DNA from: an uncultured Candidatus Saccharibacteria bacterium
Lineage (GTDB): Bacteria > Patescibacteriota > Minisyncoccia > UBA6257 > JAUSGH01
Length of the DNA: 31,651 nt
Assembly (NCBI GenBank): GCA_964366955.1
Contig: CAYIVT010000001.1
Span: forward strand, 1-31,651
Direction of reading: 5' to 3'
Positions 3,259 through 22,856 of this stretch are shown piece by piece (within the stretch, counting starts at the first letter, position 1; the number at the start of each line of letters is the position of its first letter). The notes below the pieces were generated by a model that worked only from the letters and a program-made list of their open reading frames with translations, was not told the DNA's origin and did not search any database. The position numbers and the translations under genes were made by a program.

Positions 3259-3287
3259 CAAAATGACAGTCTTACAATACAATAATT

Positions 3288-3322
3288 AGAGGTGGCAACC
3301 ATGCGGTTGCCACCTCTTTTTT
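3288..3322. terminator. Intrinsic terminator between tRNA-Gln and the convergent Zn-finger ORF
   Basis: 13-bp perfect stem AGAGGTGGCAACC-ATGC-GGTTGCCACCTCT followed by a T run on +. Confidence 0.85.
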
Positions 3323-3488
3323 AGTTTCCTCCCATAGACTCAAGTTCCATCAATGCCTTCCTACGATTGAACCACCCAAGTAAGCAATCCCAACACTGCT
3401 TGCAAAGATACCGATTATTCAACTCAAGCTTAACAAATTGATGAGTCGGAATATGCTCTTGCTTTCCGCAGCGAGCACACTTTTGCAT
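3321..3488 (-). CDS. Small CxxC...CxxC zinc-finger protein (~55 aa)
   Basis: MQKCARCG...YLCKQCW; GGAGGT at 3499-3504 upstream of GTG 3494/ATG 3488; own promoter and terminator. Confidence 0.75.
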   Translation of the reverse strand: MQKCARCGKQEHIPTHQFVKLELNNRYLCKQCWDCLLGWFNRRKALMELESMGGN

Positions 3489-3551
3489 TTCCACGGTTAC
3501 CTCCAACAAATAACTGTGGTACAATAAAATCATCTCAACTACTTACTTGCA

Positions 3552-3580
3552 ATGGTACATAAATACATGAAAAAAGTCAA
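3552..3580 (-). promoter_or_regulatory. Sigma70-type promoter for the 3321-3488 ORF
   Basis: TTGACT-17 nt-TACCAT on the minus strand. Confidence 0.55.
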
Positions 3581-4016
3581 TGCTTTAATAATTTTTAGTT
3601 TATTTTTAGTATTACTAGTTTTATTTTCTTTCTCAAAAAATAAAAACTCGCTTAGCCAAATTTCTGCGGATGTTCCATGTTTACTTCCCAACCTCCCGTT
3701 AGTTATGCATCTTCATTCAGAGTTAAGTATAGAAATTGATGGAAAAATACAAAATATTCCTAATACTATTGGCATAGAAAAATCTTGCGAAAGAGCTATA
3801 CATATGCATAACGATACTATGGGTAAAATTCATGTGGAATCTCAAACAGTGCGAGACTATACCCTAGGAGATTTTTTCTCAGTTTGGGGTGAAAAAATTG
3901 AAAAAGAAAATTATGACCTTATCATGACAGTTAATAACCAACCATCGAAAGAATCTAGTTCAGTTATTCTAAAAAATGATCAAAAAATAAAATTAGTTTA
4001 CACTGCTAAAAAATAA
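3567..4016 (+). CDS. Exported or membrane-anchored His-rich putative metal-binding protein
   Basis: N-terminal signal/anchor (MKKVNALIIFSLFLVLLVLF), then MHLH, C-x4-HMHND-x3-KIHVES and YTLGDFFSVWG. An alternative start is 3552. Confidence 0.75.
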   Translation: MKKVNALIIFSLFLVLLVLFSFSKNKNSLSQISADVPCLLPNLPLVMHLHSELSIEIDGKIQNIPNTIGIEKSCERAIHMHNDTMGKIHVESQTVRDYTLGDFFSVWGEKIEKENYDLIMTVNNQPSKESSSVILKNDQKIKLVYTAKK

Positions 4017-4020
4017 TCTT

Positions 4021-4626
4021 ATGAGGCAAAATTACAATCCCGAAAAATTAAAAATAACTAATAACTTGGAAGGTTTTAGTTTAAAAATGGTTAACGAACA
4101 TTTTAAACTTTACGAAGGCTATGTTAAAAAAACTAATGAGATTCAACAAAAACTAGAAGAAGCCGATAAGTCAGAAGCTAATGGCGTTTACAGTTTTATT
4201 GGGGAATTAAAACGCCAAGAAACTTTTGCTGTAAATGGCATGAAATTGCACGAGGTATATTTTGGTCAGTTAGATGGTGTGGCAAATAATGCGACACAAG
4301 CTAGCGATGAAATTTTAAAAATGATAGAAAGAGATTTTGGCTCTATGAATAAATGGAAACTAGACATGATCGCCACTGGCTTATCTGCTCGCGGATGGGG
4401 GATATTGGCTTATGACCTTAAAGATGGCAAGTTGCATAACTATGGTTCGGATGGCCATAACGTAGGCGCAGTTTGGGGCGCAATTCCTTTAATTGCGTTA
4501 GATGTTTACGAACATGCATACTTTATAGATTACGGCGTTAACCGCAAAGATTATATAAATTCATTTTTCAAAAATTTAAATTGGAACTACGTAAATGAAT
4601 TAATTAAAAAATTTAATTTAACATAA
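4021..4626 (+). CDS. Fe/Mn superoxide dismutase family protein
   Basis: Four ligand positions: NEHF, KLHE and LDVYEHAYFIDY; also GWGIL. Confidence 0.92.
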   Translation: MRQNYNPEKLKITNNLEGFSLKMVNEHFKLYEGYVKKTNEIQQKLEEADKSEANGVYSFIGELKRQETFAVNGMKLHEVYFGQLDGVANNATQASDEILKMIERDFGSMNKWKLDMIATGLSARGWGILAYDLKDGKLHNYGSDGHNVGAVWGAIPLIALDVYEHAYFIDYGVNRKDYINSFFKNLNWNYVNELIKKFNLT

Positions 4627-4631
4627 ACAAA

Positions 4632-4661
4632 TACAAGCCATCCTAGTAGGGATGGCTTGTA
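4632..4661. terminator. Hairpin terminator between convergent SOD and the Cys-rich ORF
   Basis: 12-bp stem TACAAGCCATCC/GGATGGCTTGTA with A/T-rich flanks. Confidence 0.75.
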
Positions 4662-4667
4662 AATTTA

Positions 4668-4883
4668 CTAACTCACGCTAACTAAAAGCGAGGAAGCTCT
4701 ACACTCACGACACAAAGATTTTTGAAGTTCATTGATTGCTGTCAGTCTTCTACATTTTTGACATGCTTCATGCGGGGTGCCCATCACAGGATGCTCACAC
4801 TTAGAACAACAAAATTTATTTCCACGTAATTTATTGTAGTCTAACAACGAAAAGCACTTAGAGCAATAATTACGCTCTTCCAC
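4668..4883 (-). CDS. Small double zinc-ribbon-like protein (four CxxC pairs)
   Basis: CSKC, CSKC, CQKC, CREC in 71 aa; AAGGAGGAG at 4889-4897 before the GTG start; perfect promoter upstream. Confidence 0.78.
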   Translation of the reverse strand: MEERNYCSKCFSLLDYNKLRGNKFCCSKCEHPVMGTPHEACQKCRRLTAINELQKSLCRECRASSLLVSVS

Positions 4884-4937
4884 CGATACTCCTCCTTAAA
4901 AATAATACCGATTGATACAATCAAATTACTGATAACT

Positions 4938-4966
4938 ATTATAGTGAAATAATCAATTTATGTCAA
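4938..4966 (-). promoter_or_regulatory. Perfect consensus sigma70 promoter
   Basis: TTGACA-17 nt-TATAAT; the -35 lies in the last codons of fmt (AAT TTG ACA TAA). Confidence 0.85.
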
Positions 4967-5788
4967 ATTTTTGTAAGCCCTAGGTTTTTTGCCATCTAGT
5001 TGAATTTTTTCTAATCTAAGTTTTCCTTCATGAATTGAAGTCTCTAAAATTTTCATACGAACTTTTTCCTCATTACGCCTAATGAAGGTATATACTCCGG
5101 GGTCTGGATTTAATGCTCGCACTTTACGATCAATCATTGTTCGTTCATCTTTTTCTAAATCTATAAATCCATCTTCAGTGCTAAATTTTTTAGTAAAAGT
5201 GGCTTGGCTGTGATCTTGCGCCATGCCAATATTTTTTTTATTTATAAAATTTGGGATGGTTTCCAACAAAAGATCTGCGCTCACTTGTGCAAGCTCACAC
5301 ATCAATGTTTCATAATGAATCCTATTGGCTATTGGCCAAACCCTAGTGACTATTACTTCTCCGTGATCAACTTTCTCGTCCATTAAATATAGAGTTACTC
5401 CTGTTTCTTTTTCTCCCGCTAAAATAACTGATTGTATAGGAGTTGCTCCACGATACTTTGGAAGAAGCGATGGATGCACGCCGATTGTTCCTAATCTAGG
5501 TAAATCTAAAATAGCTTTAGGAATTATCTTGGCATAAGCAGCAACGACGAAGAAGTCGAAATTACTATTGGCTATTGGCCAAACCCTAGTGGCTAAATTA
5601 TCTGGTTGCCAAACTGGGATGTTGCTTTTTATAGCCACGACCTTAGTTAATGGGGGAGTGACTATTTTTTTACGACCAACTGGTTTATCGGGGTTACAAA
5701 TAACAAGTGCCGGCGGCATACCAGCAGCAATTAAATTTTCTAAAATAATTTTAGCAAATTCTGGACTTCCAAAAAATACATATTTCAT
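4958..5788 (-). CDS. fmt: Methionyl-tRNA formyltransferase
   Basis: FFGSPEF, PDKPVGRKK, VHPSLLPKYRGATPIQ, GVTLYLMDEKVDHG; overlaps the def stop. Confidence 0.96.
   Translation of the reverse strand: MKYVFFGSPEFAKIILENLIAAGMPPALVICNPDKPVGRKKIVTPPLTKVVAIKSNIPVWQPDNLATRVWPIANSNFDFFVVAAYAKIIPKAILDLPRLGTIGVHPSLLPKYRGATPIQSVILAGEKETGVTLYLMDEKVDHGEVIVTRVWPIANRIHYETLMCELAQVSADLLLETIPNFINKKNIGMAQDHSQATFTKKFSTEDGFIDLEKDERTMIDRKVRALNPDPGVYTFIRRNEEKVRMKILETSIHEGKLRLEKIQLDGKKPRAYKNLT
5322..5348. repeat. Copy 1 of an exact 27-bp intragenic repeat in fmt (encodes TRVWPIAN)
   Basis: CTATTGGCTATTGGCCAAACCCTAGTG, identical to 5565-5591. Confidence 0.95.
5565..5591. repeat. Copy 2 of the exact 27-bp intragenic repeat in fmt
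   Basis: Identical to 5322-5348, same orientation and reading frame. Confidence 0.95.
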
Positions 5789-6267
5789 ATCGCATTATTC
5801 GCGATTACTCTAACGTCTTTTGCTTTATCAATAAATAATATCCCATTTAAGTGATCTACCTCGTGTTGAAAAACGCGCGCCAAAACTCCTTTTGCTTTTA
5901 TTTTTATGGGCTTACTATTTTTATCATAAGCAGATAAAACAACTTTTTCATTACGTTCAACTTTTCCATAAGTTTTAGGCACGCTCAAACAGCCCTCGTC
6001 TTCAATGCTAGTTTCATCAGAAGATTTAATAATTTCAGGATTGAAAAAAGAATAAAATTTACCATTTACTCTCGTTACAAAAACTCTAACATTTAGCCCA
6101 ATTTGATTTGCTGCCAAACCAATGCCTTTTTCTTCTAGCATAGCTAAACGCATCATTTTTATGAGCTCACTAATTTCTTTTTTAGAAAATTTAGAAAAAT
6201 CAAAATCTGCGGTTTTGGTGCGCAAATTTTTTTCATCTACTTTATTATTTATGGTTAAGATTTTCAT
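5785..6267 (-). CDS. def: Peptide deformylase
   Basis: GIGLAANQIG, EGCLS and QHEVDHLNG motifs. Confidence 0.97.
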   Translation of the reverse strand: MKILTINNKVDEKNLRTKTADFDFSKFSKKEISELIKMMRLAMLEEKGIGLAANQIGLNVRVFVTRVNGKFYSFFNPEIIKSSDETSIEDEGCLSVPKTYGKVERNEKVVLSAYDKNSKPIKIKAKGVLARVFQHEVDHLNGILFIDKAKDVRVIANNAI

Positions 6268-6281
6268 TTTGTAATGTCTGG

Positions 6282-6333
6282 GCCACCCGATGACCAGAAT
6301 GCACTTGCTTTAATATTTAGGTCATCGGGTGGC
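6282..6333. repeat. Hairpin element copy 1 (REP/REPIN-like or structured RNA)
   Basis: 14-bp inverted repeat GCCACCCGATGACC / GGTCATCGGGTGGC around a 24-nt spacer containing CTTTAATATTT; homologous to 17610-17665. Confidence 0.85.
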
Positions 6334-6340
6334 GAAACAC

Positions 6341-6619
6341 TCATTTTTTAAATTCCTTTGGGTCATACAAAACTTTCATAAAATATGCCCCCATATTCTT
6401 AACATCTTTAGTCTCAGCCACGGTTTTAGCTAACGACAATATTTTATCCTTTCCTAGCTTTTTTGTCAATTTAATGTATAATGCTTTATGTTCACTATCG
6501 TTTAAAATATCAGCAACTTCTAAGCCAATTGACTGAAATTCTTGCGAAACACGATTATCTCTTTTACGCCTCTTAATAGCATCTAAGTAATTTATACCAG
6601 CATTTTCAAACAAGTTCAT
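6341..6619 (-). CDS. Small helical hypothetical protein upstream of def
   Basis: 92-aa ORF with LYIKLTKK and KNMGAYFMKVL segments; TAAAAT 6 nt before the ATG. Confidence 0.75.
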   Translation of the reverse strand: MNLFENAGINYLDAIKRRKRDNRVSQEFQSIGLEVADILNDSEHKALYIKLTKKLGKDKILSLAKTVAETKDVKNMGAYFMKVLYDPKEFKK

Positions 6620-6673
6620 ATTTCAATTTTAAGCCATTTGGCTATTAAGAACAATTGCATTATATTAATTAGT

Positions 6674-7231
6674 ATGCGTCGTTTATTTATTAGTATTGAT
6701 TTACCAAAAAATATTCAACACGAACTGGATTATGAAGTTTCTGAATTACAAAAAAGTGCGTGGGATAAAGTTAAATTTGTGCCAAAAGAAAATTGGCATC
6801 TTACGCTCATTTTTTTAGGCGATCAAGATGATATTGCAATGGGTCAAATAATTAGTGCCCTCAACACGCACGTTCCACAAATTAAAGCTCAAGAATTATT
6901 GATTAAATCTTTATGCTACGGCCCAAAAATTGAGAATCCCAGCATGATATGGGCATTAACCGACAAAGAATCTTCTTTAAAATTATTAAAGATTAGAGAT
7001 TCTATAAATAATACACTAGCTAAAGCGAATGTTCGCTTTCAAGAAGACAAAAGAACATATAACGGACACATAACACTGGCGCGTTTAAAATCTAGAAATA
7101 GCTTACCTGCATTATCAAAAAATCTTAATATTAAATTTACAGCCTATACAATTTCCTTAATAGAATCAGAGTTAACTAAAAACGAAGCGGAATATATAAC
7201 GCTGGCTTCGTGGACATTAAATGAAGAATAA
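6674..7231 (+). CDS. thpR: RNA 2',3'-cyclic phosphodiesterase (2H phosphoesterase, LigT/ThpR)
   Basis: RLFISIDLP start and two HxT motifs (WHLTL, GHITL). Start ATG 6674 rather than the track's 6638. Confidence 0.92.
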   Translation: MRRLFISIDLPKNIQHELDYEVSELQKSAWDKVKFVPKENWHLTLIFLGDQDDIAMGQIISALNTHVPQIKAQELLIKSLCYGPKIENPSMIWALTDKESSLKLLKIRDSINNTLAKANVRFQEDKRTYNGHITLARLKSRNSLPALSKNLNIKFTAYTISLIESELTKNEAEYITLASWTLNEE

Positions 7232-7247
7232 CTTAAAATAATAAATA

Positions 7248-8504
7248 ATGAAACTTACAAAATCTTTTTTAAAAACTAAGAATGGTTTTTTAATCGCTTT
7301 TGCTGTAATTTCTATAAGTTCTTTGGCGTGTGTTGGTTTTTTAAGTTTTCAATTAGGCAAAAATTACCCACAGAATATTATAGTTAAGGGAGTTTCTAAT
7401 ATTGAAGCACTGGCTACTACAACAACTGATTTCAGCACTTTTTGGGAAGGTTGGCAGCTAATGAAAAATGAATATTTAAAAGGTGAGGAAATTAAAGACA
7501 AAAACTTAGTTTATGGCGCAATTGAGGGTATGGTACGGTCTGCTGGTGATCCACACACAATATTTTTCCCGCCAATAGAAGCTAAAAAATTTGAACAAGA
7601 TGTAGCTGGTAATTTTGGTGGCATTGGAGCAGAAATTGGCATTAAAGACGACCAGCTAATCGTAATAGCTCCTCTTAAGGGTTCACCAGCAGAACTAGCT
7701 GGATTACGTGCTCAAGATAAAATTCTTAAAATAAACAATAAAATAACTGAGCGCATTAAAGTTGATGATGCGGTTAATCTGATTAGAGGGGAAATTGGCA
7801 CAAAAGTAACTTTGACAATCTTAAGAAGCGGCTTAGATGTAATTAAAGAAATTACCATTACTCGACAAACAATTCAAATACCGACAATAGATTATAAAAT
7901 GCTTGAAAATAGTGTTGGATATATTAGAATTAAAAATTTTAATGAAAATGCGCCAAAGCTTTTTTTTGAAGCTTCAAAAGATTTATTAGCTTCCGGTGTA
8001 GCTGGAATGTTTTTAGATTTTGGTGATGACGCCGGCGGATCTTTAGAAGTGGCAGTTGACTTAACTGGATGGTTCTTAGAACAGGGAAGCACGGTAGCCA
8101 TAGAAGAATTTAGATCTGCTCCTCAAGAAATATTTAAAGCACACGGAAATGGAATTTTTAAACCAGTGCCAGTAGTGGTTTTAGTTAATGGTGGAACAGC
8201 TTCTGCTGCAGAAATTATGGCTGGTGCCCTACGTGATAATTTGGGATCTAAACTAGTAGGGGAAAAAACTTTCGGCAAAGGAACAGTACAAGAATTAAAA
8301 CATTTACGTGATGGTTCAAGCATCAAACTAACAATTGCTCATTGGCTAACACCAAAAGGCACGCTCATTGATCAAAATGGATTAAAGCCAGACTTTGAAG
8401 CTAAGCTCGGAGAAGAAGATATTAAAAACAACAAAGATCCTCAACTAGATAAAGCCATAGAAGTGATCAAATCTTTAATTGCCAAAAATGTAGCAATTAA
8501 TTAA
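7248..8504 (+). CDS. ctpA: Carboxyl-terminal processing protease, S41A family, with PDZ domain
   Basis: GDPHT, FGGIGAEI PDZ region, TASAAEI (Ser), GEKTFGKGTVQ (Lys). The usual LDLRxNPGG motif reads LDFGDDAGG. Confidence 0.92.
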   Translation: MKLTKSFLKTKNGFLIAFAVISISSLACVGFLSFQLGKNYPQNIIVKGVSNIEALATTTTDFSTFWEGWQLMKNEYLKGEEIKDKNLVYGAIEGMVRSAGDPHTIFFPPIEAKKFEQDVAGNFGGIGAEIGIKDDQLIVIAPLKGSPAELAGLRAQDKILKINNKITERIKVDDAVNLIRGEIGTKVTLTILRSGLDVIKEITITRQTIQIPTIDYKMLENSVGYIRIKNFNENAPKLFFEASKDLLASGVAGMFLDFGDDAGGSLEVAVDLTGWFLEQGSTVAIEEFRSAPQEIFKAHGNGIFKPVPVVVLVNGGTASAAEIMAGALRDNLGSKLVGEKTFGKGTVQELKHLRDGSSIKLTIAHWLTPKGTLIDQNGLKPDFEAKLGEEDIKNNKDPQLDKAIEVIKSLIAKNVAIN

Positions 8505-8573
8505 AGGAGTTTGTTTTATTCACATTATTTATTCTTAAATTCCTGCCAGCAGACAGGAACGATTACTCTATGT

Positions 8574-9002
8574 ATGAGAGTTTTATTTTTAGAAAACGTA
8601 AAAAAAGTGGGTCGCAAATCCGAAACTAAAGAAGTAAACGACGGCTATGCGCGCAATTTTTTGATTCCCAAAAAGTTAGCTATTGCCGCTACAAATGAGG
8701 TACTAGCTAAACAAACAGACGAAGACGCACACAGTAAAGCTCAATTGGAACATCTTAAAAAAACGAAAATAGATCTAGAAAAAGAAGTTTTTATTTTTAA
8801 AGTTAAAACCGGTAAAGATGGCTCTGTTTTTAATTCTATTAACGGAAAAGATATCGAAAAAGAACTATTCGCGCGAAATAAAATTAAGGTCAAAAAAGTT
8901 TTTTTAGATCGACCACTTAAAGCCCCAGGAGAACACAAAATTAATATTGATTTAGGTCAGAAAATAACTACAAAACTTACAATTAATATAGTAAGCGCAT
9001 AA
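8574..9002 (+). CDS. rplI: 50S ribosomal protein L9
   Basis: [13 protein letters not shown]...[17 protein letters not shown] and GSVFNSIN. Start ATG 8574 rather than TTG 8511. Confidence 0.95.
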
Positions 9003-9005
9003 AAT

Positions 9006-9033
9006 AAAAAATCCCTCATTCAAGGGATTTTTT
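9006..9033. terminator. Bidirectional intrinsic terminator between rplI and rpmA
   Basis: AAAAAATCCCT-CATTCA-AGGGATTTTTT. Confidence 0.85.
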
Positions 9034-9310
9034 ATAATGGATTCACTTTGACGATTTTAGCGTATCTAGTATTTCCATCAAATTTTATTTTTTTAGTGGA
9101 AATAAATTCTACTATGCCGCCAACTTTAGCGTATAAGGTATCATCTGCTCCTTTAGAAACTCCTGCACCGTGCAAAAACTTTGAACCCCTTTGGCGAATT
9201 ATAATTTCGCCTGGTTTAACAGCTTGTCCATGATTCTTTTTAATGCCAAGACGCTTAGATATCGAATCTCGGCCTAATTTAGTTGAGCCTACCGATTTAG
9301 TAGATGCCAT
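9032..9310 (-). CDS. rpmA: 50S ribosomal protein L27
   Basis: [43 protein letters not shown]. Confidence 0.97.
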
Positions 9311-9387
9311 ATTACAAAATATAACCCTTTAAAGTATACTTCTGTCACCCTTTACTACTGTATCAAGTATATTCTATAATGCGCCTT

Positions 9388-9549
9388 ATGTCAATGTTAA
9401 AAAATATTATAACTTGGGCCAAAGAGTATAAACATATCCTTATAATTCTTACTTTAATTTTCTTAACAAATACGATTAGTTTCGCCTTAGGTTATTTAAT
9501 GGTCAATGATCGTAACCGTTCACCGATTATTATTGAGAAAGCTAAATAA
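9388..9549 (+). CDS. 53-aa single-pass membrane protein, below the ORF-track cutoff
   Basis: Manual translation MSMLKNIITWAKEYKHILIILTLIFLTNTISFALGYLMVNDRNRSPIIIEKAK*; fills the rpmA-ndh gap; TATAAT (9375-9380) lies 7 nt before the ATG. Confidence 0.7.
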   Translation: MSMLKNIITWAKEYKHILIILTLIFLTNTISFALGYLMVNDRNRSPIIIEKAK

Positions 9550-9556
9550 GCACAGC

Positions 9557-10840
9557 TTATCCCAATCGATCATTTTTAATAAATATTTTTAATCCTTTCA
9601 GCCATAATCTTATAGCGCAAAAAAATGGACGGATTGAGAGCAAGTAATTCAATTCTACTAAACCCTTAAACAGCCAGCCTAAAAATCCACTAACAACAAA
9701 AGGCCCAATTTTAGCGATGGCGTATTTACCCCCAATTGGCGTAACATAGGGATAATCATATGGCTCATAAATAAAACTTTTCTTATTTTTAATAATTTTT
9801 TCTTTTAATTTAATGTCTTCAAAAATATTTTTAGCAACAACCCCACCCTGAATAATTGCAGATCGCGCAGTCATTGGCACTGGCAAGTTAGTTTGTGGAT
9901 TATAAAAACACACAGCATCGCCTAATCCATAAATATTGCCATAAAGTTTTAAATCAGGTGTTTGCGGTAAACACTCCATCTCTTCGGCTACTAAAACTTT
10001 ACTTCTGTCTTTTTTAAGTGGTAAAACACTTATAAGCGCCGACGCTTTAACTCCACCAGTCCAAACAAAAATGTCATAGGAAATTTCTTTTTTAGAATCT
10101 AGCAAAACTTTTTTTTCTTGAACTTCGATAACTCTTGCATTTGTTAATACGCATACTTTTAATTTCTTCAATCTTTCAACGGCTTTTTTTATGACTCTTT
10201 TATCTAACCCAGGCAAAATAGTATCTCCGCCTTGTATCATAGTAACAGCAGTAGAACACTCTTGCTTAATTTCTTGCTTTAAACTGAAAAGCCATTCTTG
10301 AATTTCTCCAGCTAATTCCACGCTAGTGGGACCACCACCACCAATCGCTATTTTAAAATCTTGTTTACTCGCTGATTTTTCTAAATATAATTCTAGAATA
10401 CGATCTCGTAATTTAATAGCATCTAAAAAAGTCTTAAAAGTCATGGCATACTTTTCTAAGCCAGAAATATCATAAAAATTTGGCTCAGAGCCCATTGCTA
10501 AAACTAAATAATCAAATTTCAATTTTTGATTTTGACAATGCACATCACCGTTAAAAAGATCTAACTCAAGCACTTTATCCTGAATAAAAATAATTGGCAA
10601 TTTAGCTATCAAATCTTTCACTGGATAAGCCATTATTTCTTTTAAGTCTAAATAATTAGCTGTTTCCTTAGAAGTGGTGGCAGCTTCATAAAGAGTTGGC
10701 GTGTAAGTTTGATATGAATTTTTATCAACTAAAAATAACCGATAATGATTTTGAAGATTATACTGCTTTAAATTTTTACCCAAATTGAGCGCCACACTCA
10801 AACCTCCAAAACCAGCCCCAATAATTACAATGTTCTTCAT
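9557..10840 (-). CDS. ndh: Type II NADH dehydrogenase-like FAD/NAD oxidoreductase
   Basis: IIGAGFGG and second Rossmann GGGPTSVELAGE, YGLGDA. Start ATG 10840 (MKNIVII) preferred. Confidence 0.88.
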   Translation of the reverse strand: MKNIVIIGAGFGGLSVALNLGKNLKQYNLQNHYRLFLVDKNSYQTYTPTLYEAATTSKETANYLDLKEIMAYPVKDLIAKLPIIFIQDKVLELDLFNGDVHCQNQKLKFDYLVLAMGSEPNFYDISGLEKYAMTFKTFLDAIKLRDRILELYLEKSASKQDFKIAIGGGGPTSVELAGEIQEWLFSLKQEIKQECSTAVTMIQGGDTILPGLDKRVIKKAVERLKKLKVCVLTNARVIEVQEKKVLLDSKKEISYDIFVWTGGVKASALISVLPLKKDRSKVLVAEEMECLPQTPDLKLYGNIYGLGDAVCFYNPQTNLPVPMTARSAIIQGGVVAKNIFEDIKLKEKIIKNKKSFIYEPYDYPYVTPIGGKYAIAKIGPFVVSGFLGWLFKGLVELNYLLSIRPFFCAIRLWLKGLKIFIKNDRLG

Positions 10841-10887
10841 TATATTTAATTCTATCATGAGGTAGCTAGTTGTGGTATATTTAAAAA

Positions 10888-11979: not shown

Positions 11980-12056
11980 GATAAATAAAAGTAGAAACTA
12001 TACCCAGTTCTTTAAAAACTACTTTAAGGATATAAATTATGTTATTATACTCGTTA

Positions 12057-12905
12057 ATGAACATTGCAGATAAAAATATCGTAATACTATATCATGGTGA
12101 TTGCTCAGATGGTTTTAGTGGCGCTTGGGCCGCATGGAAAAAATTCGGTGATCAAGCTGCTTATATTGGCGTGCAATACAAAAATCCCATGCCAGAAGGA
12201 TTAATTAATAAAGAAATTTATTTAATTGATTTCACATATGGGCTAGAGCAAATGGAAAAACTGATCGCAGAAAATAAAAAAGTAACATGCATAGACCATC
12301 ACATAACAGCAGAACCAATCATAAAACTCACTCAAAATTATTCATTTGACAATAATCATTCTGGCTGCGTGTTAGCTTGGAAATATTTCCATCCCCAAAA
12401 ATTAGTGCCTAAATTCTTACTTTTTGTAGAAGATAACGATATTGGTAAATGGTCTATTAAAGGAACAGAAGAAGTTCTAGCTTATATTCGCACTGAAGAA
12501 CAAAATTTTAAAAATTGGAGCAGGTTAGTTAAAAAAATAGAAAAAATATCGTCTCGTAAAAAAATTCTAGAAATTGGCGCAGCTATTAAAAAATTTGAAG
12601 GGCGTATTGTGTCTGGTTTAATAGAGCGTAAAGCAGAGCTAGTGGAATTTGAAGGCATTCAAACTCTATGCGTAAATTCTCCAAGCTTTCCAACTAATAT
12701 TGGAAGGGCTATAGTTAAAAAAATGCCCCCAATGGCAATTATCTGGAACAAAGAACCGGGCGGAATTTATGTATCATTGCGCTCTAATGGAACAACGGAT
12801 GTTGCTAAAATTGCACAAAAATATGGTGGAGGTGGGCATAAGGCAGCTGCAGGATTTTTTATTAAAAACGATGAAAAAATTCCATGGAAGAACAAAACTT
12901 TTTAG
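12057..12905 (+). CDS. DHH/DHHA1 phosphoesterase (nanoRNase-like)
   Basis: YHGDCSDG, LIDF, IDHH and C-terminal GGGGHKAAAGF. Start 12057 or 12039. Confidence 0.9.
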   Translation: MNIADKNIVILYHGDCSDGFSGAWAAWKKFGDQAAYIGVQYKNPMPEGLINKEIYLIDFTYGLEQMEKLIAENKKVTCIDHHITAEPIIKLTQNYSFDNNHSGCVLAWKYFHPQKLVPKFLLFVEDNDIGKWSIKGTEEVLAYIRTEEQNFKNWSRLVKKIEKISSRKKILEIGAAIKKFEGRIVSGLIERKAELVEFEGIQTLCVNSPSFPTNIGRAIVKKMPPMAIIWNKEPGGIYVSLRSNGTTDVAKIAQKYGGGGHKAAAGFFIKNDEKIPWKNKTF

Positions 12906-13312
12906 ATAATAAAAAAATATTAGTCTATACCGATGGAGGTGCGCGCGGCAATCCAGGGCCCGCTGCTTGCGGTTATGCAATTAACGGCAAAGGCTACGGA
13001 GAATTTTTAGGTATTAAAACAAATAATCAAGCAGAATATCAAGGATTAATTTCTGCACTAAAAAAAGTTAAATCTTTAGTTGGAAAAGATCAATCTAAAA
13101 AAATAGAAGTTGAGGTGCGGATGGACTCAGAGCTCATCGTTCGTCAAATGAATAATCAATATAAAATTAGCGATGAAAAAATGCAAATTATGTATGTTGA
13201 AGTGCACAATTTAACTTTAGATTTTAAAAAAGTTAACTTTATTCATGTGCCCCGTGAGCAAAATAAACTTGCCGATACAATGGTTAACGATGCGCTCGAT
13301 CAAAACTTGTAA
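12884..13312 (+). CDS. rnhA: Ribonuclease HI family protein
   Basis: YTDGGARGNPGPAA, TNNQAEY, DSELIVRQM, HVPREQNKLAD. Confidence 0.95.
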   Translation: MEEQNFLDNKKILVYTDGGARGNPGPAACGYAINGKGYGEFLGIKTNNQAEYQGLISALKKVKSLVGKDQSKKIEVEVRMDSELIVRQMNNQYKISDEKMQIMYVEVHNLTLDFKKVNFIHVPREQNKLADTMVNDALDQNL

Positions 13313-13340
13313 AGCCCCCGATTATTATCAGGGGCTTTTT
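13311..13340. terminator. Bidirectional terminator between rnhA and the convergent orphan ORF
   Basis: AAAGCCCC...GGGGCTTTTT; overlaps both stop codons. Confidence 0.8.
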
Positions 13341-13567
13341 GTTTTGTACTTTTTAAAAACTTCTTTTGCGCATTTCAGCATTGCCTTATAAAGCACTCTT
13401 TCATAGTCGCAATAGCTATCAATCCTTTTTAATTTGCCATTACGATAAGCAAAATGTCCTATGTCAGTTGGCTTATCACCTGATTTGCCACCAATTTGAA
13501 CAGATTCTATGCGATTATTGGTATTTAAAATAACACGGTAAAACCAAACAGAAACTAGCTCATCCAT
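13328..13567 (-). CDS. 79-aa hypothetical protein divergent from rnpB
   Basis: GGAGGT at 13575-13580, 7 nt before ATG 13567; TTGACA-17-TACTAT promoter; terminator at its 3' end. Confidence 0.75.
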   Translation of the reverse strand: MDELVSVWFYRVILNTNNRIESVQIGGKSGDKPTDIGHFAYRNGKLKRIDSYCDYERVLYKAMLKCAKEVFKKYKTKSP

Positions 13568-13594
13568 AATGCGCACCTCCAAAAGACTACCTAC

Positions 13595-13645
13595 ATAGTA
13601 CACACTCATCAAACTATTGTCAATAACACTTTACTGTGTTATACT
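13595..13645. promoter_or_regulatory. Back-to-back promoters with overlapping -35 boxes
   Basis: Minus: TTGACA(13623-13618)-17-TACTAT(13600-13595). Plus: TTGTCA(13617-13622)-17-TATACT(13640-13645), ending 7 nt before rnpB. Confidence 0.8.
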
Positions 13646-13652
13646 ATTAAGC

Positions 13653-14015
13653 AGCAGTGAAAATATAGTTGCGCTCCGATAAACATCGGAGTGAGGAAAG
13701 TCCGGACACTCAGTGCATCTCACTAAAATGAGATGCGCACTGGTAGCAGGTAACCCCTGCCATATGTAAGTTAGAGGTGCGAACAGAAACGCTTTGACTT
13801 GAAAGAGCCAAAGAAGCCCAATCTCAAGCTAGTTGGCTTAGCTTAACTATAGAGATAAAAAGGTTAAGATGAAACGGCTAAATCCTTACCTGAGTGCAAG
13901 GTCGTGTCTCGTTTTACGAGAAGAACCGCTCGAGCCCATAAGCGATTATGGGCCTAGATAAATAACTATAATGTCCCTTTGGGATATAACAGAATCCGGC
14001 TTATTCTTCGCTGCT
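13653..14015 (+). ncRNA. rnpB: RNase P RNA
   Basis: Universal GAGGAAAGTCC and ACAGAATCCGGCTTA (P4); P1 AGCAGTGAA/TTCGCTGCT; P2 ATAGTT/AACTAT; P18-like CCCATAAGCGATTATGGG. Confidence 0.96.
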
Positions 14016-14020
14016 AATAT

Positions 14021-14042
14021 AAAATCCCCGCAAGGGGATTTT
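14021..14042 (+). terminator. Terminator of rnpB
   Basis: AAAATCCCC-GCAA-GGGGATTTT. Confidence 0.85.
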
Positions 14043-14069
14043 ATATTTTTAGAATGATATAATAATTTA

Positions 14070-15701: not shown

Positions 15702-15721
15702 GTGGTATAATATAGCCACAT

Positions 15722-16849: not shown

Positions 16850-16852
16850 ATA

Positions 16853-17578: not shown

Positions 17579-17609
17579 CAAGCAAGATAGTTTAGGGTAT
17601 AGTATATTT

Positions 17610-17665
17610 ACTCTCCCGATGACCCAAATATTAAAGATTGCTGTATTTATGGTCATCGGGAAAGT
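17610..17665. repeat. Hairpin element copy 2, inverted relative to copy 1
   Basis: CCCGATGACC(17615-17624)-CAAATATTAAAG...-GGTCATCGGG(17651-17660), with its own outer stem ACTCT/AAAGT. Confidence 0.85.
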
Positions 17666-17698
17666 TTAATATTGAATTTTAAATTAGCTTCTTAATAT

Positions 17699-18883: not shown

Positions 18884-19643
18884 ATCCAATTTTTTTGAGC
18901 CACTCTTCATTATCCCATTCCCAAAGTTTTTTAGCACCTAAAAATGCCTCAAAATCGCTTTTCCATTCTGGCATTTCTTGGAGTTCGCAGACCCCAGTTA
19001 GTGGACCCCAAGAGTGCATGTTATTCATACACGATAAACCTGCACCCCGCCTAATTTTCCCTCGATTACCCTTAACACGTAAAATCGCTCTGCATTGATT
19101 GCAAGTTTTAACTTGATCAATTCTAAAAATCCAGCGAGTGGTTAAGTTGGGAATTTCTGTTGTCAGCACATCCATATAAGCGGATGTTTGTAAATTATAA
19201 TCACGATAGATAGCTTGTGAAGTTTTAATATCCAAAACACCATATTTACCGCCAATCAAAGCTACGGCATCAATGGTTCCCGCATAGCGATGCTTAGTAT
19301 TACAAACTCTTTTTTCTATATATTTAATGTCAAATTGAATATTTTTTTGTTCTACAAATTTTAAAGCTGCTTCAACAGCAGGGGATATAGCTGGATCAAC
19401 AAAGGGCTTTTCGCCGCTTAAAGTTTTCTGCACTGCTTCGTGAACTGCTGTACCTTCAAGAGCTGCTAACTCTGTGGCTTCTTTGGCAGCTTTAAAACTA
19501 ACTGCGTCTCCATAATAGCGCAGCAAAGCTGGCTTGGATTTTATTCCAATAATTTTAGTAACTCTAGGATACCAAGCGCCATCTATTGTGTAGCCATTAG
19601 CTTCCTTGAATTCTTGTTCAGTTTTGAATTCTAAATAATTCAT
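18876..19643 (-). CDS. PD-(D/E)XK RecB-family nuclease with a Cys/His insert
   Basis: YPRVTKII, GTAVH, EKRV, YAGTIDA, DIKTS, QTSAY; insert CNQC...C-x4-H. Start probably ATG 19643. Confidence 0.85.
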   Translation of the reverse strand: MNYLEFKTEQEFKEANGYTIDGAWYPRVTKIIGIKSKPALLRYYGDAVSFKAAKEATELAALEGTAVHEAVQKTLSGEKPFVDPAISPAVEAALKFVEQKNIQFDIKYIEKRVCNTKHRYAGTIDAVALIGGKYGVLDIKTSQAIYRDYNLQTSAYMDVLTTEIPNLTTRWIFRIDQVKTCNQCRAILRVKGNRGKIRRGAGLSCMNNMHSWGPLTGVCELQEMPEWKSDFEAFLGAKKLWEWDNEEWLKKIGYV

Positions 19644-20937
19644 CAGTATATTCATTAATATTACCCGCACCCATCATAATAACAATATTTTTTTTATTTT
19701 TAACAATTTTTGTTTTAAAATAATTTTTTAGTTCTTGTAAATCAGAAATAACAACAACTTCTTTATTGCGACGCAAGAAAATGCTTTTAGCTAAAGCTCT
19801 GGAATCAAGCTCTATTTTTTCCTCATCGCGCCCAGCCACACCATAAACCTCAAGTAAAGCTATTTGATCAGCCACGTCAAAAGCTCTAACGAAATCTTTA
19901 AATAAAATTTTCAATCTTTCTCTTTGGTGCGGTTGAAAAATACAAATTATATTAGAATCTTTATACTTTTCTTTAAAACCAGTCAATGTTGCTTTTATTT
20001 CTTGCGGATGATGGGCGTAGTCATCAAATAAAGATGCCCCCATAAACTCTCCACGATATTCGCTTCTACGCCAAGCGCCACTATAAGAACCCAAAGTTTT
20101 TAAAATAAGCTGCTTTTTAACGCCTAACGCTCTAGCTAAAATATATGCCCCAACTGCATTCGATAAATTATGCGCACCTGAAAGCTTTAAGATTTTTTTA
20201 ATTTCTAACGCTTCTTTGGATTTTATACTATACCAAACAACTTGACGTTTAATAAACTCGCGCAAAGAATAAAGATTCTTATTATCCTTATTTAAAACCA
20301 AAAGGCCATATTTATGAGTATTATCTATAAAATTAAGAAAGGTTTTTTTAATCTCATTTAAATTTTTATAAAAATCTAAATGCTCGCGATCTATATTTGT
20401 AATAAGAGCAGCATAAGGGAAATAATGTAAAAAAGAAGCCTTCCATTCATCGGCCTCTAAAACAAGATAATCACTTTTACCACTGCGAAAATTTTTATTG
20501 TCAAATTCCTTTAATTTTGTGCCCAAAATAACCGTAGGGTCAAATTTTGCCTTCTCTAAAATAAGGGCCACCATAGAAGCAGTTGTGCTTTTACCGTGAG
20601 CGCCCGCTATAGCAACAGTTTTATAAAGCTTTGTCAATTCTCCTATAACTTCTGGATAAGTAGAAGTGGGGATTTTAAAGTCACGAGCTTTTTGAAGTTC
20701 TAGATTATCTTCGGAATTAGCTTGATTATAAATTACACGAACTGACTGGTCATCTAAATTTTGTGCCTGGTGCTTGCCAATAAAAATTTTCACTCCGTCA
20801 TTTTTTAATTCTTCAATAGTAGAAGAAGGGGAGAGGTCGGAGCCAGACACCTGATAACCGTGCGCTAAAAACCAGCGCGCCAAAGCACTCATACCAATTC
20901 CACCAATACCAATAAAATAAACTGATCCCTTGTGCAT
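19618..20937 (-). CDS. murC: UDP-N-acetylmuramate--L-alanine ligase
   Basis: FIGIGGIGMSALA, AGAHGKSTT, LEADE, DDYAHHPQEI, MGAGNI. Start ATG 20937 preferred. Confidence 0.96.
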   Translation of the reverse strand: MHKGSVYFIGIGGIGMSALARWFLAHGYQVSGSDLSPSSTIEELKNDGVKIFIGKHQAQNLDDQSVRVIYNQANSEDNLELQKARDFKIPTSTYPEVIGELTKLYKTVAIAGAHGKSTTASMVALILEKAKFDPTVILGTKLKEFDNKNFRSGKSDYLVLEADEWKASFLHYFPYAALITNIDREHLDFYKNLNEIKKTFLNFIDNTHKYGLLVLNKDNKNLYSLREFIKRQVVWYSIKSKEALEIKKILKLSGAHNLSNAVGAYILARALGVKKQLILKTLGSYSGAWRRSEYRGEFMGASLFDDYAHHPQEIKATLTGFKEKYKDSNIICIFQPHQRERLKILFKDFVRAFDVADQIALLEVYGVAGRDEEKIELDSRALAKSIFLRRNKEVVVISDLQELKNYFKTKIVKNKKNIVIMMGAGNINEYTDELFRIQN

Positions 20938-21121
20938 ACTGTTTATATTTAGAAGTATATATATTTTTAGAAAAAAGTGGTAGTCCATTCAATGAAATAA
21001 GGGTACCAAAATTAACCAGTGGGGTAGTGCTTCCTTGTTTTAATATACTGTCGCACAATATACATTTTGCGTCAGTAATAGGCTATTGCCAAATAAATAA
21101 CTGTATTTTTTAATTCGTCCC

Positions 21122-21161
21122 ATCCTTCATACTCACTGCTATAGCAGTGAGTATGAAGGAT
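21122..21161. repeat. Perfect 40-bp spacerless palindrome
   Basis: ATCCTTCATACTCACTGCTA|TAGCAGTGAGTATGAAGGAT, checked base by base. Confidence 0.95.
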
Positions 21162-21179
21162 TAAGAAAATATAATTTAA

Positions 21180-21219
21180 AATAAAAAATGTAGTCTTGAA
21201 AATTAATTCGAGACTACAT
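21180..21219 (-). terminator. Intrinsic terminator of the antitoxin-like gene
   Basis: Minus strand ATGTAGTCTCGAA-TTAATT-TTCAAGACTACAT (13-bp stem, one mismatch) followed by TTTTTATTT; contains the TAG stop. Confidence 0.7.
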
Positions 21220-21570
21220 AAAAGCTCCTCTACTAACATCGTCGATCATACACATTAATTCCTTATGTCCTTTATCGCTACGCAACATATCAATGGGGCG
21301 CCTATGGTTAAATGATTTATTAGGTTTAGCTAACCACTGCAGTTGGCTATCAAGCATCATACAATCCCCTAGTTCAACTAAAAAATTATCCAGTCGCGCA
21401 AGTTGCATGCTAAATTTTTTAGTTATACGTTTTTTGCTACGCAATATTTCATGCAACTGCCCAGTACTAATACTAAATAATTTTGCAAATTTGCGAATTG
21501 GCACATCTTTACCATGAGGAATTAATTTCTTCATTAGTCGCAACAAATCTAAAGACGACCAAATTTTCAC
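21214..21570 (-). CDS. Xre/MbcA/ParS-type antitoxin-like protein (HTH + C-terminal toxin-binding domain)
   Basis: HTH (IRKFAKLFSISTGQLHEILR) plus WLAKPNKSFNHRRPIDML-x4-G...IDDVSRGAF; AAAGGAGGT at 21576-21584; TGGACT-17-TATAAT promoter. Confidence 0.78.
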   Translation of the reverse strand: MKIWSSLDLLRLMKKLIPHGKDVPIRKFAKLFSISTGQLHEILRSKKRITKKFSMQLARLDNFLVELGDCMMLDSQLQWLAKPNKSFNHRRPIDMLRSDKGHKELMCMIDDVSRGAFM

Positions 21571-21608
21571 GCAGCACCTCCTTTCTAGCTTTTATTATAC
21601 GAAAACAA

Positions 21609-22856
21609 TTAGAGATAGTCCAGCGGATTAAGATAGCCACCATATGGCATTTCTCCACAAGAACGGCTACGCCCCATATAAAATGTCGGCTTAGAGTAAA
21701 CTGTTAGATGTAAATGAGGGCCAGTTGCATAACCACTTTTGCCAACATAACCAATAAAATCACCTCTAGTAACAGTTTGGCCGTTATTTACATTTATAGA
21801 AGAAAGGTGCGCATATAGAGTTACTAAATTATTATTATGAGAAATAACTATAAAACGACCATAAGCGCCTTTACGGCAAAATAAATCCTGATTACCAGTT
21901 TTCACCACTACCCCATCTTCTGCAGCATAAATTGGAGTACCTATTGAAGCTGCAATATCTATTCCATTATGAGCCTTACCACGATAACCACCTTTTTGAG
22001 AAAAAGCTGTGATGCCAAAATTCTGACTTAAAAAACCTTTAACTGGCATTAAAAGTACTCCGGCTCTTTTTTGAGGTAAAAGGCTTGGATCAATTTTAGA
22101 TCGTAATTCTTCTTCAATTTCTTCTATTTCTCCAGAAATAGTTAACTGTTTTTTTTCTAATTCGTTAATTTGCTGCTCATAAAGACGTTGCTGATTTTTT
22201 GTTTGAGATAATAAAGTTTGTTGATCTTGTTTCTGATCAACTAAAGCTATTTTCCTAATTTTTAAAGTTCCATTTTCTCTTTTAAGATCTTCTCTTTTTT
22301 GCGATCTTTCCTTTAACTTCGTAGATAAAATAATCTGGACATTTTTTAATTCATTAATATTTTCAGCCAATTTACCATTTAAAGTAACTAAAGTTTGTGT
22401 TTCTAATAAAATATCACCTAAAGTTCCATTTTTCATTAAAGATAACAGTAAACTTTCGCGATCTCTTTCTTGTAAAACTCTCAGTAGGCTTTGAACGGCT
22501 TTTTTCTTTAACAAAACTTTATCTTGCGCATCGGTAATATCATATTGCAAAGCAGAAATCTCCAGCTCTAATTTATCAATAATAAACTCACTGGATTTAA
22601 TACCTAAATTTAACTGCCCCAAAGAATAATCCACCCGATTTAATTCTTGTTTTAATGTGCGACTACGCTCTTCTGTCTCTCCTAAATTTTTAGAAACTGC
22701 CTGCAATTGATTAGTAACTTCTTGTAGCGCGCGCGTTTTTTCGTTAATCGCTTGCTCTAGCTCTAACGGTGCAGCTGCAGAAACATAAGTGAAGCTAGGT
22801 ATTGCAATTACAAAATTAAATAAAACTATGATTATTTTTTTATGAAGGTAGCTCAT
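21609..22856 (-). CDS. Coiled-coil M23 family murein endopeptidase (EnvC/MepM-like)
   Basis: Signal peptide, long coiled coil, intact HNGID and HLH zinc motifs. Confidence 0.9.
   Translation of the reverse strand: MSYLHKKIIIVLFNFVIAIPSFTYVSAAAPLELEQAINEKTRALQEVTNQLQAVSKNLGETEERSRTLKQELNRVDYSLGQLNLGIKSSEFIIDKLELEISALQYDITDAQDKVLLKKKAVQSLLRVLQERDRESLLLSLMKNGTLGDILLETQTLVTLNGKLAENINELKNVQIILSTKLKERSQKREDLKRENGTLKIRKIALVDQKQDQQTLLSQTKNQQRLYEQQINELEKKQLTISGEIEEIEEELRSKIDPSLLPQKRAGVLLMPVKGFLSQNFGITAFSQKGGYRGKAHNGIDIAASIGTPIYAAEDGVVVKTGNQDLFCRKGAYGRFIVISHNNNLVTLYAHLSSINVNNGQTVTRGDFIGYVGKSGYATGPHLHLTVYSKPTFYMGRSRSCGEMPYGGYLNPLDYL

Follow-up and report, generated by a model that had tools for sequence, protein, structure and literature searches.

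Phage morons are autonomous units, each composed of a promoter, an ORF and a terminator, that lie between conserved prophage genes. Within cellular genomes, leaderless or non-Shine-Dalgarno (SD) starts and SD starts reportedly co-exist, and GeneMarkS-2 is said to set compositionally atypical genes apart as a separate class; in its group-C genomes the SD sequence reportedly serves native genes inside operons. To our knowledge, how translation starts in the candidate phyla radiation (CPR) has hardly been studied. In the Bacteroidia, as in Flavobacterium johnsoniae, the anti-SD is kept and sequestered, and the SD-bearing ribosomal-protein gene rpsU is conserved and autoregulated (PMC7797042, PMC9976891). 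Loss of the anti-SD in Parcubacteria that lack uL1 has already been published, and that study describes the absence of uL1 as overlapping the loss (Tsurumaki et al. 2022, RNA 28:1041, PMC9297842). Here we describe four small genes with textbook SD sequences, and the genome-wide class to which they belong, in a genome (G000) from an order whose readable 16S rRNA genes lack the anti-SD.

Four small SD-led genes in the window

The window is the whole stretch of DNA that was analysed (31,651 nt). The host is a tiny groundwater bacterium. Direct reading confirmed four small minus-strand ORFs that the first-pass annotation had singled out, each with GGAGG 5-8 nt 5′ of its start codon (5, 7, 8 and 6 nt for genes 1, 2, 3 and 4, respectively), a −35 and −10 at 17-nt spacing and a 3′ hairpin. 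Genes 1, 2 and 4 start with GTG and gene 3 starts with ATG. The four genes are flanked by fmt, SOD, M23, murC, rnpB and tRNA-Gln, and they account for every start-linked GGAGG in the window. A GTG at 10795 is also accompanied by GGAGG; it lies inside a Pyr_redox_2 gene, 3′ of the Rossmann motif, and is a chance site.

Taken together, promoter-like sites did not exceed the frequency that shuffling the sequence gave (60 versus 60.5 in one count and 64 versus 65.3 in another). With 9/12 matches, the site of gene 1 is at the level expected by chance in AT-rich DNA; the promoters of gene 2 (12/12) and of genes 3 and 4 (10/12 each) rank with the best that the window contains. The overlaps of these promoters with fmt, the M23 gene, the His-rich gene and rnpB are real. 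They had been taken to speak against recent insertion, an argument that we found to be weak, as in the case of gene 4 only a poor −35 lies in resident DNA.

Gene 1 (3321-3494, minus strand) encodes a 57-amino acid zinc-ribbon plus helix protein, with a predicted structure of pLDDT 82. Its promoter-like site, TTGACT-17-TACCAT (3552-3580, minus strand), overlaps the divergent His-rich gene at its 5′ end, where ATG GTA, taken in reverse complement, forms the −10. GGAGG (3500-3504, minus strand) is situated 5 nt 5′ of the GTG at 3494, and a second possible start, an ATG, is found 6 nt inside the ORF. The family comprises 65 representative homologues, and alignment revealed four invariant Cys residues and the motif IPTHQxVKFD. 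The homologues occur on non-CPR contigs of 67-75% GC; one of them (63% identity, on a 67% GC contig) has AGGAGGTGAGTC 5′ of its ATG, and others adjoin ligA, thiC and HU in 75% GC genomes. Gene 1 itself is at 43% GC, having been recoded from a high-GC family with its GGAGG kept, and its GC3 is 0.47 versus 0.27 for the genome. A 13-bp hairpin (3288-3317) is common to tRNA-Gln on the plus strand, where it has a good T tail, and to gene 1 on the minus strand, where the tail is poor. We consider this hairpin to be primarily the tRNA-Gln terminator because its T tail is on the plus strand.

Gene 2 (4668-4883, minus strand) encodes a double-zinc-ribbon-like protein of 71 amino acids with nine Cys residues, eight of which fall within four CxxC pairs. 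The −35 of its promoter, TTGACA-17-TATAAT (4938-4966, minus strand), doubles as the final two codons of fmt. The SD sequence is AAGGAGG (4891-4897, minus strand), the GGAGG core of which (4895-4891) ends 7 nt 5′ of the GTG at 4883. An intrinsic terminator (4632-4661, minus strand) with a 12-bp stem followed by TTTGTTT ends the unit. A database word search with gene 2 returned no protein, and this includes the proteins called on the genome itself. In six relatives gene 2 is missing from this position: fmt converges there with SOD or the His-rich gene as its immediate neighbor, 23-76 nt away. Genes 1 and 2 likely encode small zinc-ribbon proteins that bind nucleic acid or protein.

Gene 3 (13328-13567, minus strand) is an orphan of 79 amino acids whose predicted fold, of low confidence, comprises four strands and a helix. 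Its promoter, TTGACA-17-TACTAT (13595-13623, minus strand), is back to back with that of rnpB, a gene at 13653-14019. The GGAGG core (13580-13576) of its SD, GGAGGTG (13574-13580, minus strand), ends 8 nt 5′ of the ATG at 13567, and the sequence 5′ of the SD is AGTCTTTT. A hairpin with a weak T tract (about 13312-13338), which was read directly and was not called by the terminator scan, overlaps the gene 3 stop codon and lies between gene 3 and a convergent gene at 12884-13312. In related populations, read depth collapses across 13056-13696, which is weaker evidence than the empty sites of genes 2 and 4.

The fourth gene (21214-21570, minus strand) encodes 118 amino acids that include an Xre/MbcA/ParS C-terminal toxin-binding domain (PF09722; 25.3 bits versus a cut-off of 24.5, E = 1.5e-5). 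Its SD, TAGAAAGGAGGTG (21575-21587, minus strand; spacing of 6 nt), is extended to 13 nt, every one of which is complementary to the canonical 16S tail CACCUCCUUUCUA. The terminator (21188-21219, minus strand) is an inverted repeat with 13-nt arms and a 6-nt loop, followed by the T run CATTTTTTATTTT. Pfam identified no helix-turn-helix domain in the protein, and no RES or other toxin gene adjoins it; downstream there is only a 55-amino acid ORF without a Pfam match, followed by a terminator. No homologue was found in a set of 5.8 billion proteins or in 400 Patescibacteria genomes. We consider gene 4 likely to be a solo Xre/ParS-type antitoxin or regulator.

A segment containing gene 4 (21076-21608) is missing from a related population, where 18 nt take its place and metagenome contigs join 21075 to 21609; these are low-depth contigs of a population at 80-85% identity. 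The segment holds the −10, SD, ORF and terminator of gene 4 together with a 40-bp palindrome at 21122-21161. The promoter TGGACT-17-TATAAT (21594-21622, minus strand) straddles the junction, with its −35 in the 3′-terminal part of the M23 gene and its −10 in the inserted segment.

SD-led genes as a genome-wide class

Of the 728 starts in the genome, 22 had an SD match of at least 7 nt; among the 8079 start codons that occur internally and in frame, there were 18 such matches (odds ratio 14, p = 3e-14). When matches of at least 6 nt were counted, the figures were 53/728 genes (7%) and 0.9% of internal start codons. The SD-bearing class comprises about 4-7% of the genes in this genome, and almost no other gene has a classical ribosome-binding site. 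The listing bore out the expectation that such genes would be enriched for short, isolated, Pfam-less and lineage-specific ORFs, with housekeeping genes lacking an SD. Median length was 158 amino acids in SD genes versus 247.5 in the others (p = 2e-5), and 70% versus 36% were isolated on both sides (p = 3e-6). A Pfam match was obtained for 11/49 SD genes (22%) and for 16 of 20 length-matched controls (80%; p = 2e-5). No paralogues were found among the SD genes, which are dispersed over the whole genome rather than clustered.

The class also differs in composition. The dicodon score per codon was 0.39 in SD genes versus 0.53 (p = 3e-7) and GC3 was 0.310 versus 0.274 (p = 1e-5), with overall GC (0.372 versus 0.357) remaining close to native. 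GTG starts were present in 17% of SD genes versus 4% of others, and the native T at position −1 in 38% versus 65%. Genes 1 and 2 were passed over by our own dicodon caller; for annotation, this class means that small SD-led ORFs escape gene callers whose training rests on the majority without SDs.

A homologue in the relative G007 was identified for only 6/53 SD genes (11%), whereas 302 of 556 other genes (54%) had one (p = 5e-10). The reverse comparison, starting from G007, gave 6/40 SD genes versus 296/477 others. Elsewhere in this conserved block, relatives have small SD-led ORFs of their own (L081, L097 and L102). The class had been proposed to be resident. Its deviating GC3, codon style and start context, the low share of homologues and the absence of the gene 4 cassette and of gene 2 at the same sites in relatives all argue against that view, as does the kinship of gene 1 with a zinc-ribbon family of high-GC bacteria.

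Absence of the anti-SD in the order and start types of other genes

Within the order, 13 16S genes had a readable tail, among them that of the same-family genome G003, and every one of these tails is without CCUCC, as is that of G084. In contrast, CCTCC was present in 24/24 tails from other Patescibacteria classes, and within the class it was present in 8 of 19 readable tails. The 16S gene of G000 itself is absent from the assembly, and the genome lacks uL1. The first-pass annotation had envisaged an SD-read route that the cell could switch. The order-wide absence of CCUCC (13/13), the lack of uL1 and the loss published for uL1-less Parcubacteria (PMC9297842) leave this idea without support.

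The housekeeping genes had been described as leaderless. A −10-type TANNNT starting at −14 to −11, where transcription would begin at the start codon, was found in 35% of the non-SD genes that lead an operon (87/247) versus 15% in a control window (36/247), and also in 49/193 operon-internal genes; a leaderless route may apply to part of the genes only. The HU gene has no SD, and no SD-like sequence was found in the 20 nt upstream of the bS21 gene that are visible on its contig.

The same SD minority was observed in G007, which also lacks the anti-SD (10/606 starts versus 17/6078, p = 7e-5, odds ratio 6), and a similar one, 2.8% of starts, in the anti-SD-retaining Paceibacterium G465. A second leader motif, AGTTCT, GTTCTT or TCTTTGA, accompanies the SDs in these three genomes, which belong to different families or orders. 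The motif was enriched 5′ of SDs at 16% versus 4% in G000, 18% versus 3% in G007, and 32% versus 1% (p = 1e-7) in G465, which served as an independent test genome. Its presence in three genomes hints at a signal common to the class, and not at donors of any kind. Two readings are possible for a lineage that has lost the anti-SD and in which perfect SDs are nevertheless enriched 6- to 14-fold, all of them on small genes with fast turnover.

Origin and meaning of the SD-led genes

On balance, we favor the reading in which the four genes belong to the flexible accessory pool of a uL1-less Parcubacteria/Paceibacteria genome, the SD marking a gene pool and not a switched route. Most likely, they carry textbook SDs because they are accessory cassettes that come and go. 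Each gene would be a self-contained cassette that has its own promoter of the sigma-70 type (at minimum a −10), an SD that is canonical and in many cases extended, a short ORF and a hairpin terminator. Each is the sole occupant of a spacer with conserved housekeeping genes on either side, and class members would be gained and lost quickly. The presumed horizontal source would be SD-using bacteria, or Paceibacteria that retain the anti-SD and the mobile elements of such Paceibacteria. In this host the cassettes would be transcribed from their own promoters, and any translation would probably be SD-independent, as for other leadered genes. If the SD is a simple tag of newly arrived genes, it would be of use for tracing the entry of genes into these symbionts.

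Searches of 5.8 billion proteins, 60-400 Patescibacteria genomes and viral contigs returned no homologue, and no donor, for genes 2, 3 and 4. The alternative offered at first pass, independently acquired moron-like genes, fits better than residence, except that no target-site duplications or att repeats, no phage genes nearby and no viral relatives were found. The near-native overall GC of the class counts against accessory cassettes, as does the recoding of gene 1 with retention of its GGAGG. Intact SDs of up to 13 nt are likewise unexpected in useless relics, unless turnover is fast.

The GGAGG kept by gene 1 and the intact SDs lend some weight to the other reading, a modified form of the first-pass idea, in which SD-like leaders are read by something other than the 16S tail. 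The SD and leader motif would then define a second expression class under selection, possibly co-regulated, for flexible small proteins made under specific conditions; the decoder could be, for instance, a protein, a different RNA or a subset of the ribosomes. We judge this somewhat unlikely. It would account for the SD enrichment that persists in both anti-SD-less genomes, for the length and integrity of the SDs, for the GGAGG kept by gene 1, for the leader motif 5′ of the SDs in all three genomes and for the similar size of the SD minority in G465. However, no candidate decoder was found, the SD is not conserved in 7/8 reciprocal-best orthologue pairs, the SD genes are singletons without common function or location, and the cassettes are missing from relatives. 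In addition, HU and, in the 20 nt visible, bS21 are not SD-led, and the sequencing runs that hold the sequence are DNA runs only. More specifically, the SD and the leader motif (of the TAGTTCTTTGA/TAGTTCTTTAA type) may be actively maintained on flexible genes of anti-SD-less Paceibacteria and read by a so far unknown partner, providing a second, separately controllable initiation channel for accessory small proteins; this we regard as distinctly unlikely.

It is quite improbable that this genome, unlike its sampled relatives, keeps a CCUCC anti-SD, which would make its SD genes ordinary SD-dependent ones within a largely SD-independent genome, as in the Bacteroidia or G465. The missing 16S gene, the CCTCC retained in 8/19 readable tails of the class and the same pattern in the anti-SD-positive G465 would permit this, whereas the 13/13 same-order tails, that of same-family G003 among them, and the lack of uL1, a marker that overlaps with anti-SD loss in the published study (PMC9297842), oppose it. 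Finally, it is very improbable that some of these small ORFs are no genes and, like the SD-like motifs 5′ of them, arose by chance: genes 1 and 2 do score only −6.1 and 1.8 on the native dicodon model and the word search found no database protein for gene 2, but the 14-fold enrichment over internal start codons, the conserved gene 1 family with its four invariant Cys residues, the eight paired Cys residues among the nine of gene 2, the Pfam score of gene 4 and the strong promoters and terminators that bracket genes 2, 3 and 4 speak for genuine genes.

Comparison with known systems

Gene 4 resembles the antitoxins of RES-Xre, MbcTA and ParST modules in passing the cut-off for the PF09722 C-terminal domain, and differs from them in having neither a neighboring RES toxin gene nor a Pfam helix-turn-helix. 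At the level of the genome, the trait described for anti-SD-less, uL1-less Parcubacteria recurs in 13/13 genomes of the order with readable tails, and G000 lacks uL1; the passages considered from that study report the rRNA loss and do not mention a minority with perfect SDs (PMC9297842).

Like the SD-blind translation of the Bacteroidia, this genome combines nearly universal absence of SDs and an A-rich start context with a very small set of strong or extended SDs. Here, however, the order has no anti-SD and the SD genes are non-conserved orphans (11% with a homologue); in particular, bS21 lacks an SD within the 20 nt visible upstream, and HU lacks one as well. The co-existence of non-SD and SD starts, with atypical genes set apart, recalls the genomes that GeneMarkS-2 describes with two models. 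Unlike in group C, the SD is found here on singletons that are isolated and specific to the lineage, and the lineage itself has no anti-SD. The likeness to phage morons lies in the units themselves, which are small single genes with their own promoter and terminator between conserved genes, missing from the same site in relatives, deviating in composition and mutually unrelated. In contrast to morons, these units reside in a cellular chromosome, where they are dispersed genome-wide and have housekeeping neighbors such as fmt/SOD, M23/murC, rnpB and tRNA-Gln.

Four small Shine-Dalgarno-led units in the window

Direct reading confirmed all four small minus-strand units of the first-pass annotation. 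Gene 1 (57 aa) runs from a GTG at 3494 to 3321 with GGAGG 5 nt before its start, and gene 2 (71 aa, four CxxC pairs) from a GTG at 4883 to 4668 behind AAGGAGG at a spacing of 7 nt. Gene 3 (79 aa) extends from an ATG at 13567 to 13328 and follows GGAGGTG at 8 nt; gene 4 (118 aa), from a GTG at 21570 to 21214, follows TAGAAAGGAGGTG at 6 nt, a perfect 13-nt complement to the canonical 16S rRNA tail. The sole further GGAGG-plus-start site in the window lies within a Pyr_redox_2 gene, 3′ of its Rossmann motif. A consensus scan gave 12 of 12 matches for the gene 2 promoter, which ranked first in its half of the window, 10 of 12 for those of genes 3 and 4, and 9 of 12, the chance level, for that of gene 1; across the window, promoter-like sites were not enriched over shuffled sequence. 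The window's two best terminators stand after genes 1 and 2, the T tail of the former being on the strand of tRNA-Gln (3188-3259), and the 3′ end of gene 4 carries an AT-rich 13-bp hairpin and, after it, a run of T.

For gene 1, 65 representative homologues were found, most of them 52-63 aa or tandem 110-aa forms, whose alignment showed invariant Cys6, Cys9, Cys31 and Cys34 and a conserved IPTHQxVKFD motif. Its structure was confidently predicted (pLDDT 82) as a zinc ribbon with a long helix, and a fold search of this model against the PDB gave no match at E ≤0.001. The gene adjoins a tRNA and has a GC3 of 0.47; its nearest homologues are on contigs of 67-75% GC from bacteria with ligA, thiC and HU, and one homologue has AGGAGGTGAGTC upstream of its ATG. 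Gene 2 resembles a double zinc ribbon; the protein atlas gave only generic look-alikes of that fold and the homologue search gave zero matches. For genes 3 and 4 the homologue search returned the window's own protein alone. Gene 3 had no match in the protein atlas and its predicted model was poor (pLDDT 65), and neither gene 2 nor gene 3 had a match among 60 relatives. Gene 4 clears the Pfam cut-off for an Xre/MbcA/ParS toxin-binding domain; no adjoining toxin gene was found, nor any match among 400 Patescibacteria genomes.

A distinct minority of genes in the genome

The window (GC 36%, standard genetic code) makes up contig C1 in a 67-contig, 696-kb metagenome-assembled genome from groundwater (G000), in whose contigs no 16S gene was found. 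Its closest fmt relatives, at ≤59% identity, are annotated as Minisyncoccia, Paceibacterota or Parcubacteria, and none of the runs holding window sequence is RNA. A self-trained dicodon gene caller yielded 728 genes (90% coding). Upstream of their starts the sequence is A-rich and G is not enriched (4-19% at −14 to −1), with a small residual Shine-Dalgarno (SD) peak at −14 to −9; T occupies −1 in 64% of G000 genes. When starts were matched against TAAGGAGGTGA at a spacing of 4-10 nt, matches of at least 6 nt preceded 53 of the 728 genes versus 0.9% of 8079 internal in-frame start codons, and matches of at least 7 nt preceded 22/728 called starts versus 18/8079 internal ones (odds ratio 14, p=3e-14).

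Compared with the other genes, SD genes are shorter (median 158 versus 247.5 aa, p=2e-5), with a lower dicodon score per codon (0.39 versus 0.53, p=3e-7) and a higher GC3 (0.310 versus 0.274, p=1e-5). They more often start with GTG (17% versus 4%, p=7e-4), less often have T at −1 (38% versus 65%, p=2e-4) and are more often isolated on both sides (70% versus 36%, p=3e-6), the last difference persisting within genes of ≤200 aa. Pfam matches were found for 11/49 SD genes versus 16/20 length-matched non-SD controls (p=2e-5). In G007, a nearly complete relative, 6/53 SD genes had a homologue versus 302/556 non-SD genes (p=5e-10), and the reverse comparison gave 6/40 SD versus 296/477 non-SD genes of G007 with a homologue in G000. 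From these differences in length, codon usage, isolation, Pfam content and conservation we conclude that a distinct class exists, a positive outcome of the genome-wide comparison proposed in the first-pass annotation, and that the window's four genes are typical members. SD genes are dispersed over the genome; a clustering in islands is out (3 adjacent SD-SD pairs versus 3.45 expected, no excess at contig ends), and so is a paralogous family, no SD gene being a paralogue of another. One 88-aa SD-led protein with two TM segments (G000:C8:5159-5425; AGGAGGT, spacing 5) lies directly upstream of an HU gene (C8:4742-5014) whose own long leader lacks an SD.

Presence and absence of the units in relatives

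Comparison with relatives favours flexible, probably acquired cassettes. In contigs of a related population from other groundwater runs (80-85% identity; X4 and X7), position 21075 is joined to 21609 with 18 other bases between. The absent 533 nt comprise the −10, SD, ORF and terminator of gene 4 together with a 40-bp palindrome; of the unit, the weak −35 (TGGACT) alone falls in the shared M23 coding sequence. The palindrome (21122-21161) is a perfect 20+20 and, being within the absent segment, came or goes with the cassette. Around gene 3, bin depth was 0.3-1.5 versus 7-43 on the flanks in three runs with related populations. The g6341-def-fmt block is conserved across the fmt loci of 42 relatives; in six, an SOD or His-rich gene lies directly convergent downstream of fmt, 23-76 nt away, and in the window the same spacer measures 331 nt and contains gene 2. 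Different small SD-led ORFs occur elsewhere in this block in relatives (L081, L097, L102).

At L089, where a relative encodes an SOD of 68% identity, a different ORF of 155 aa (5309-5776) occupies the fmt-SOD spacer; its product has TM helices and, near the N-terminus, two CxxC pairs. The spacer is thus filled by unrelated genes across lineages. A 199-aa ORF with GGAGGTG follows directly on a tRNA 3′ end at G007:C1:127594, the T-arm GGTTCAAGTCC lying within its leader; it resembles gene 1 beside tRNA-Gln, and such tRNA-adjacent sites may be insertion spots. Contigs of runs X4 and X6 join 5758 to 9783 via 40 other bases, a different gene order beside fmt/def in related populations, and related-population contigs skip 66-76 nt (13791-13868) within rnpB (RNase P RNA, 13653-14019), so that a variable helix of this RNA differs between populations.

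The first-pass annotation had preferred a resident class; the absence of the gene 4 segment in a related population and fmt spacers without gene 2 speak against residence. Its alternative, independent acquisition of phage-moron-like genes, agrees with this absence at the same sites but finds no counterpart in flanking direct repeats, of which none were found. The gene 4 segment has no flanking target-site duplications, the sole candidate being a 9-nt repeat at chance level. A phage origin is unsupported, as no viral relative came up in IMG/VR for gene 4 or for two SD orphans of larger size.

Leader motifs and start context

The motif TCTTTGA occurred in 8/55 SD-gene upstream regions versus 0/330 others, and in G007 ATAGTTCT stands immediately 5′ of four SDs. 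A combined leader pattern (AGTTCT, GTTCTT or TCTTTGA) preceded SD-led ORFs in 16% versus 4% in G000, 18% versus 3% in G007 and 32% versus 1% (p=1e-7) in G465, an anti-SD-retaining Paceibacterium that served as independent test genome. This motif suggests either that SD genes circulate in a class-wide pool and have their leader architecture in common or that selection acts on a second signal. Native genes of G000 and G007 have T at −1 in 64-69%, after an A-rich stretch from −11 to −3, apparently a start context reminiscent of the Kozak type. The words TAATT and TTAA are also in excess upstream of starts; a new kind of SD that pairs with the new AU-rich 16S tail was considered on this ground and set aside, as upstream stop codons (TAA) and −10 boxes are confounders.

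Loss of the anti-SD in relatives

In all 13 readable same-order 16S genes, including that of the same-family genome G003, helix 45 is followed by GGATCA and then AU-rich sequence, with no CCTCC (the anti-SD) within 400 nt; by the same method, GGATCACCTCCTTTCT was present in 24/24 Patescibacteria of other classes. Within the class, 8/19 16S tails retain CACCTCCTTTCT and the rest show C-to-T decay (loci L207-L232), stepwise examples being CACTTCTTATCT, TTATCTCTTTTC, TTATTTCCTTTCT and ACATTTCTTT. The anti-SD-less G007 nevertheless has an SD minority (10/606 versus 17/6078, p=7e-5) of short, codon-atypical genes, and in G465 most genes lack an SD and the minority amounts to 2.8%. Disuse of the SD is therefore class-wide, and the minority is independent of a decoder in the recipient. 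The prfB frameshift site, tried as an indicator of anti-SD function, was uninformative, given that the N-terminal domain is missing from both release factors. The two class-I release factor genes (G000:C34:1-609, L173; G000:C20:12406-13087, L174:1471-2151) start just where the PCRF region ends (MDNIQKIILEVRAGTGGDEA... and MISLPLKPLVGKYDNNAAYLSVYPGVGGDDA...), and hence lack domain 1 and, in prfB, the frameshift site.

The class itself is real, and the interpretation in the first-pass annotation is supported in part; a resident set switched through an SD-led route is less favoured than flexible, probably acquired cassettes. Against such a route, CCTCC is missing from the 13 readable same-order 16S genes and G000 is without uL1. 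It is rather unlikely that some so far unknown reader decodes the SD-like leaders. A literature search for SD or anti-SD with CPR terms yielded no paper on SD-bearing orphans or such a minority. G000, rated 100% complete, gave no Ribosomal_L1 (uL1) match, which places it among the uL1-less Parcubacteria, a group in which loss of the anti-SD has already been published (Tsurumaki et al., PMC9297842).
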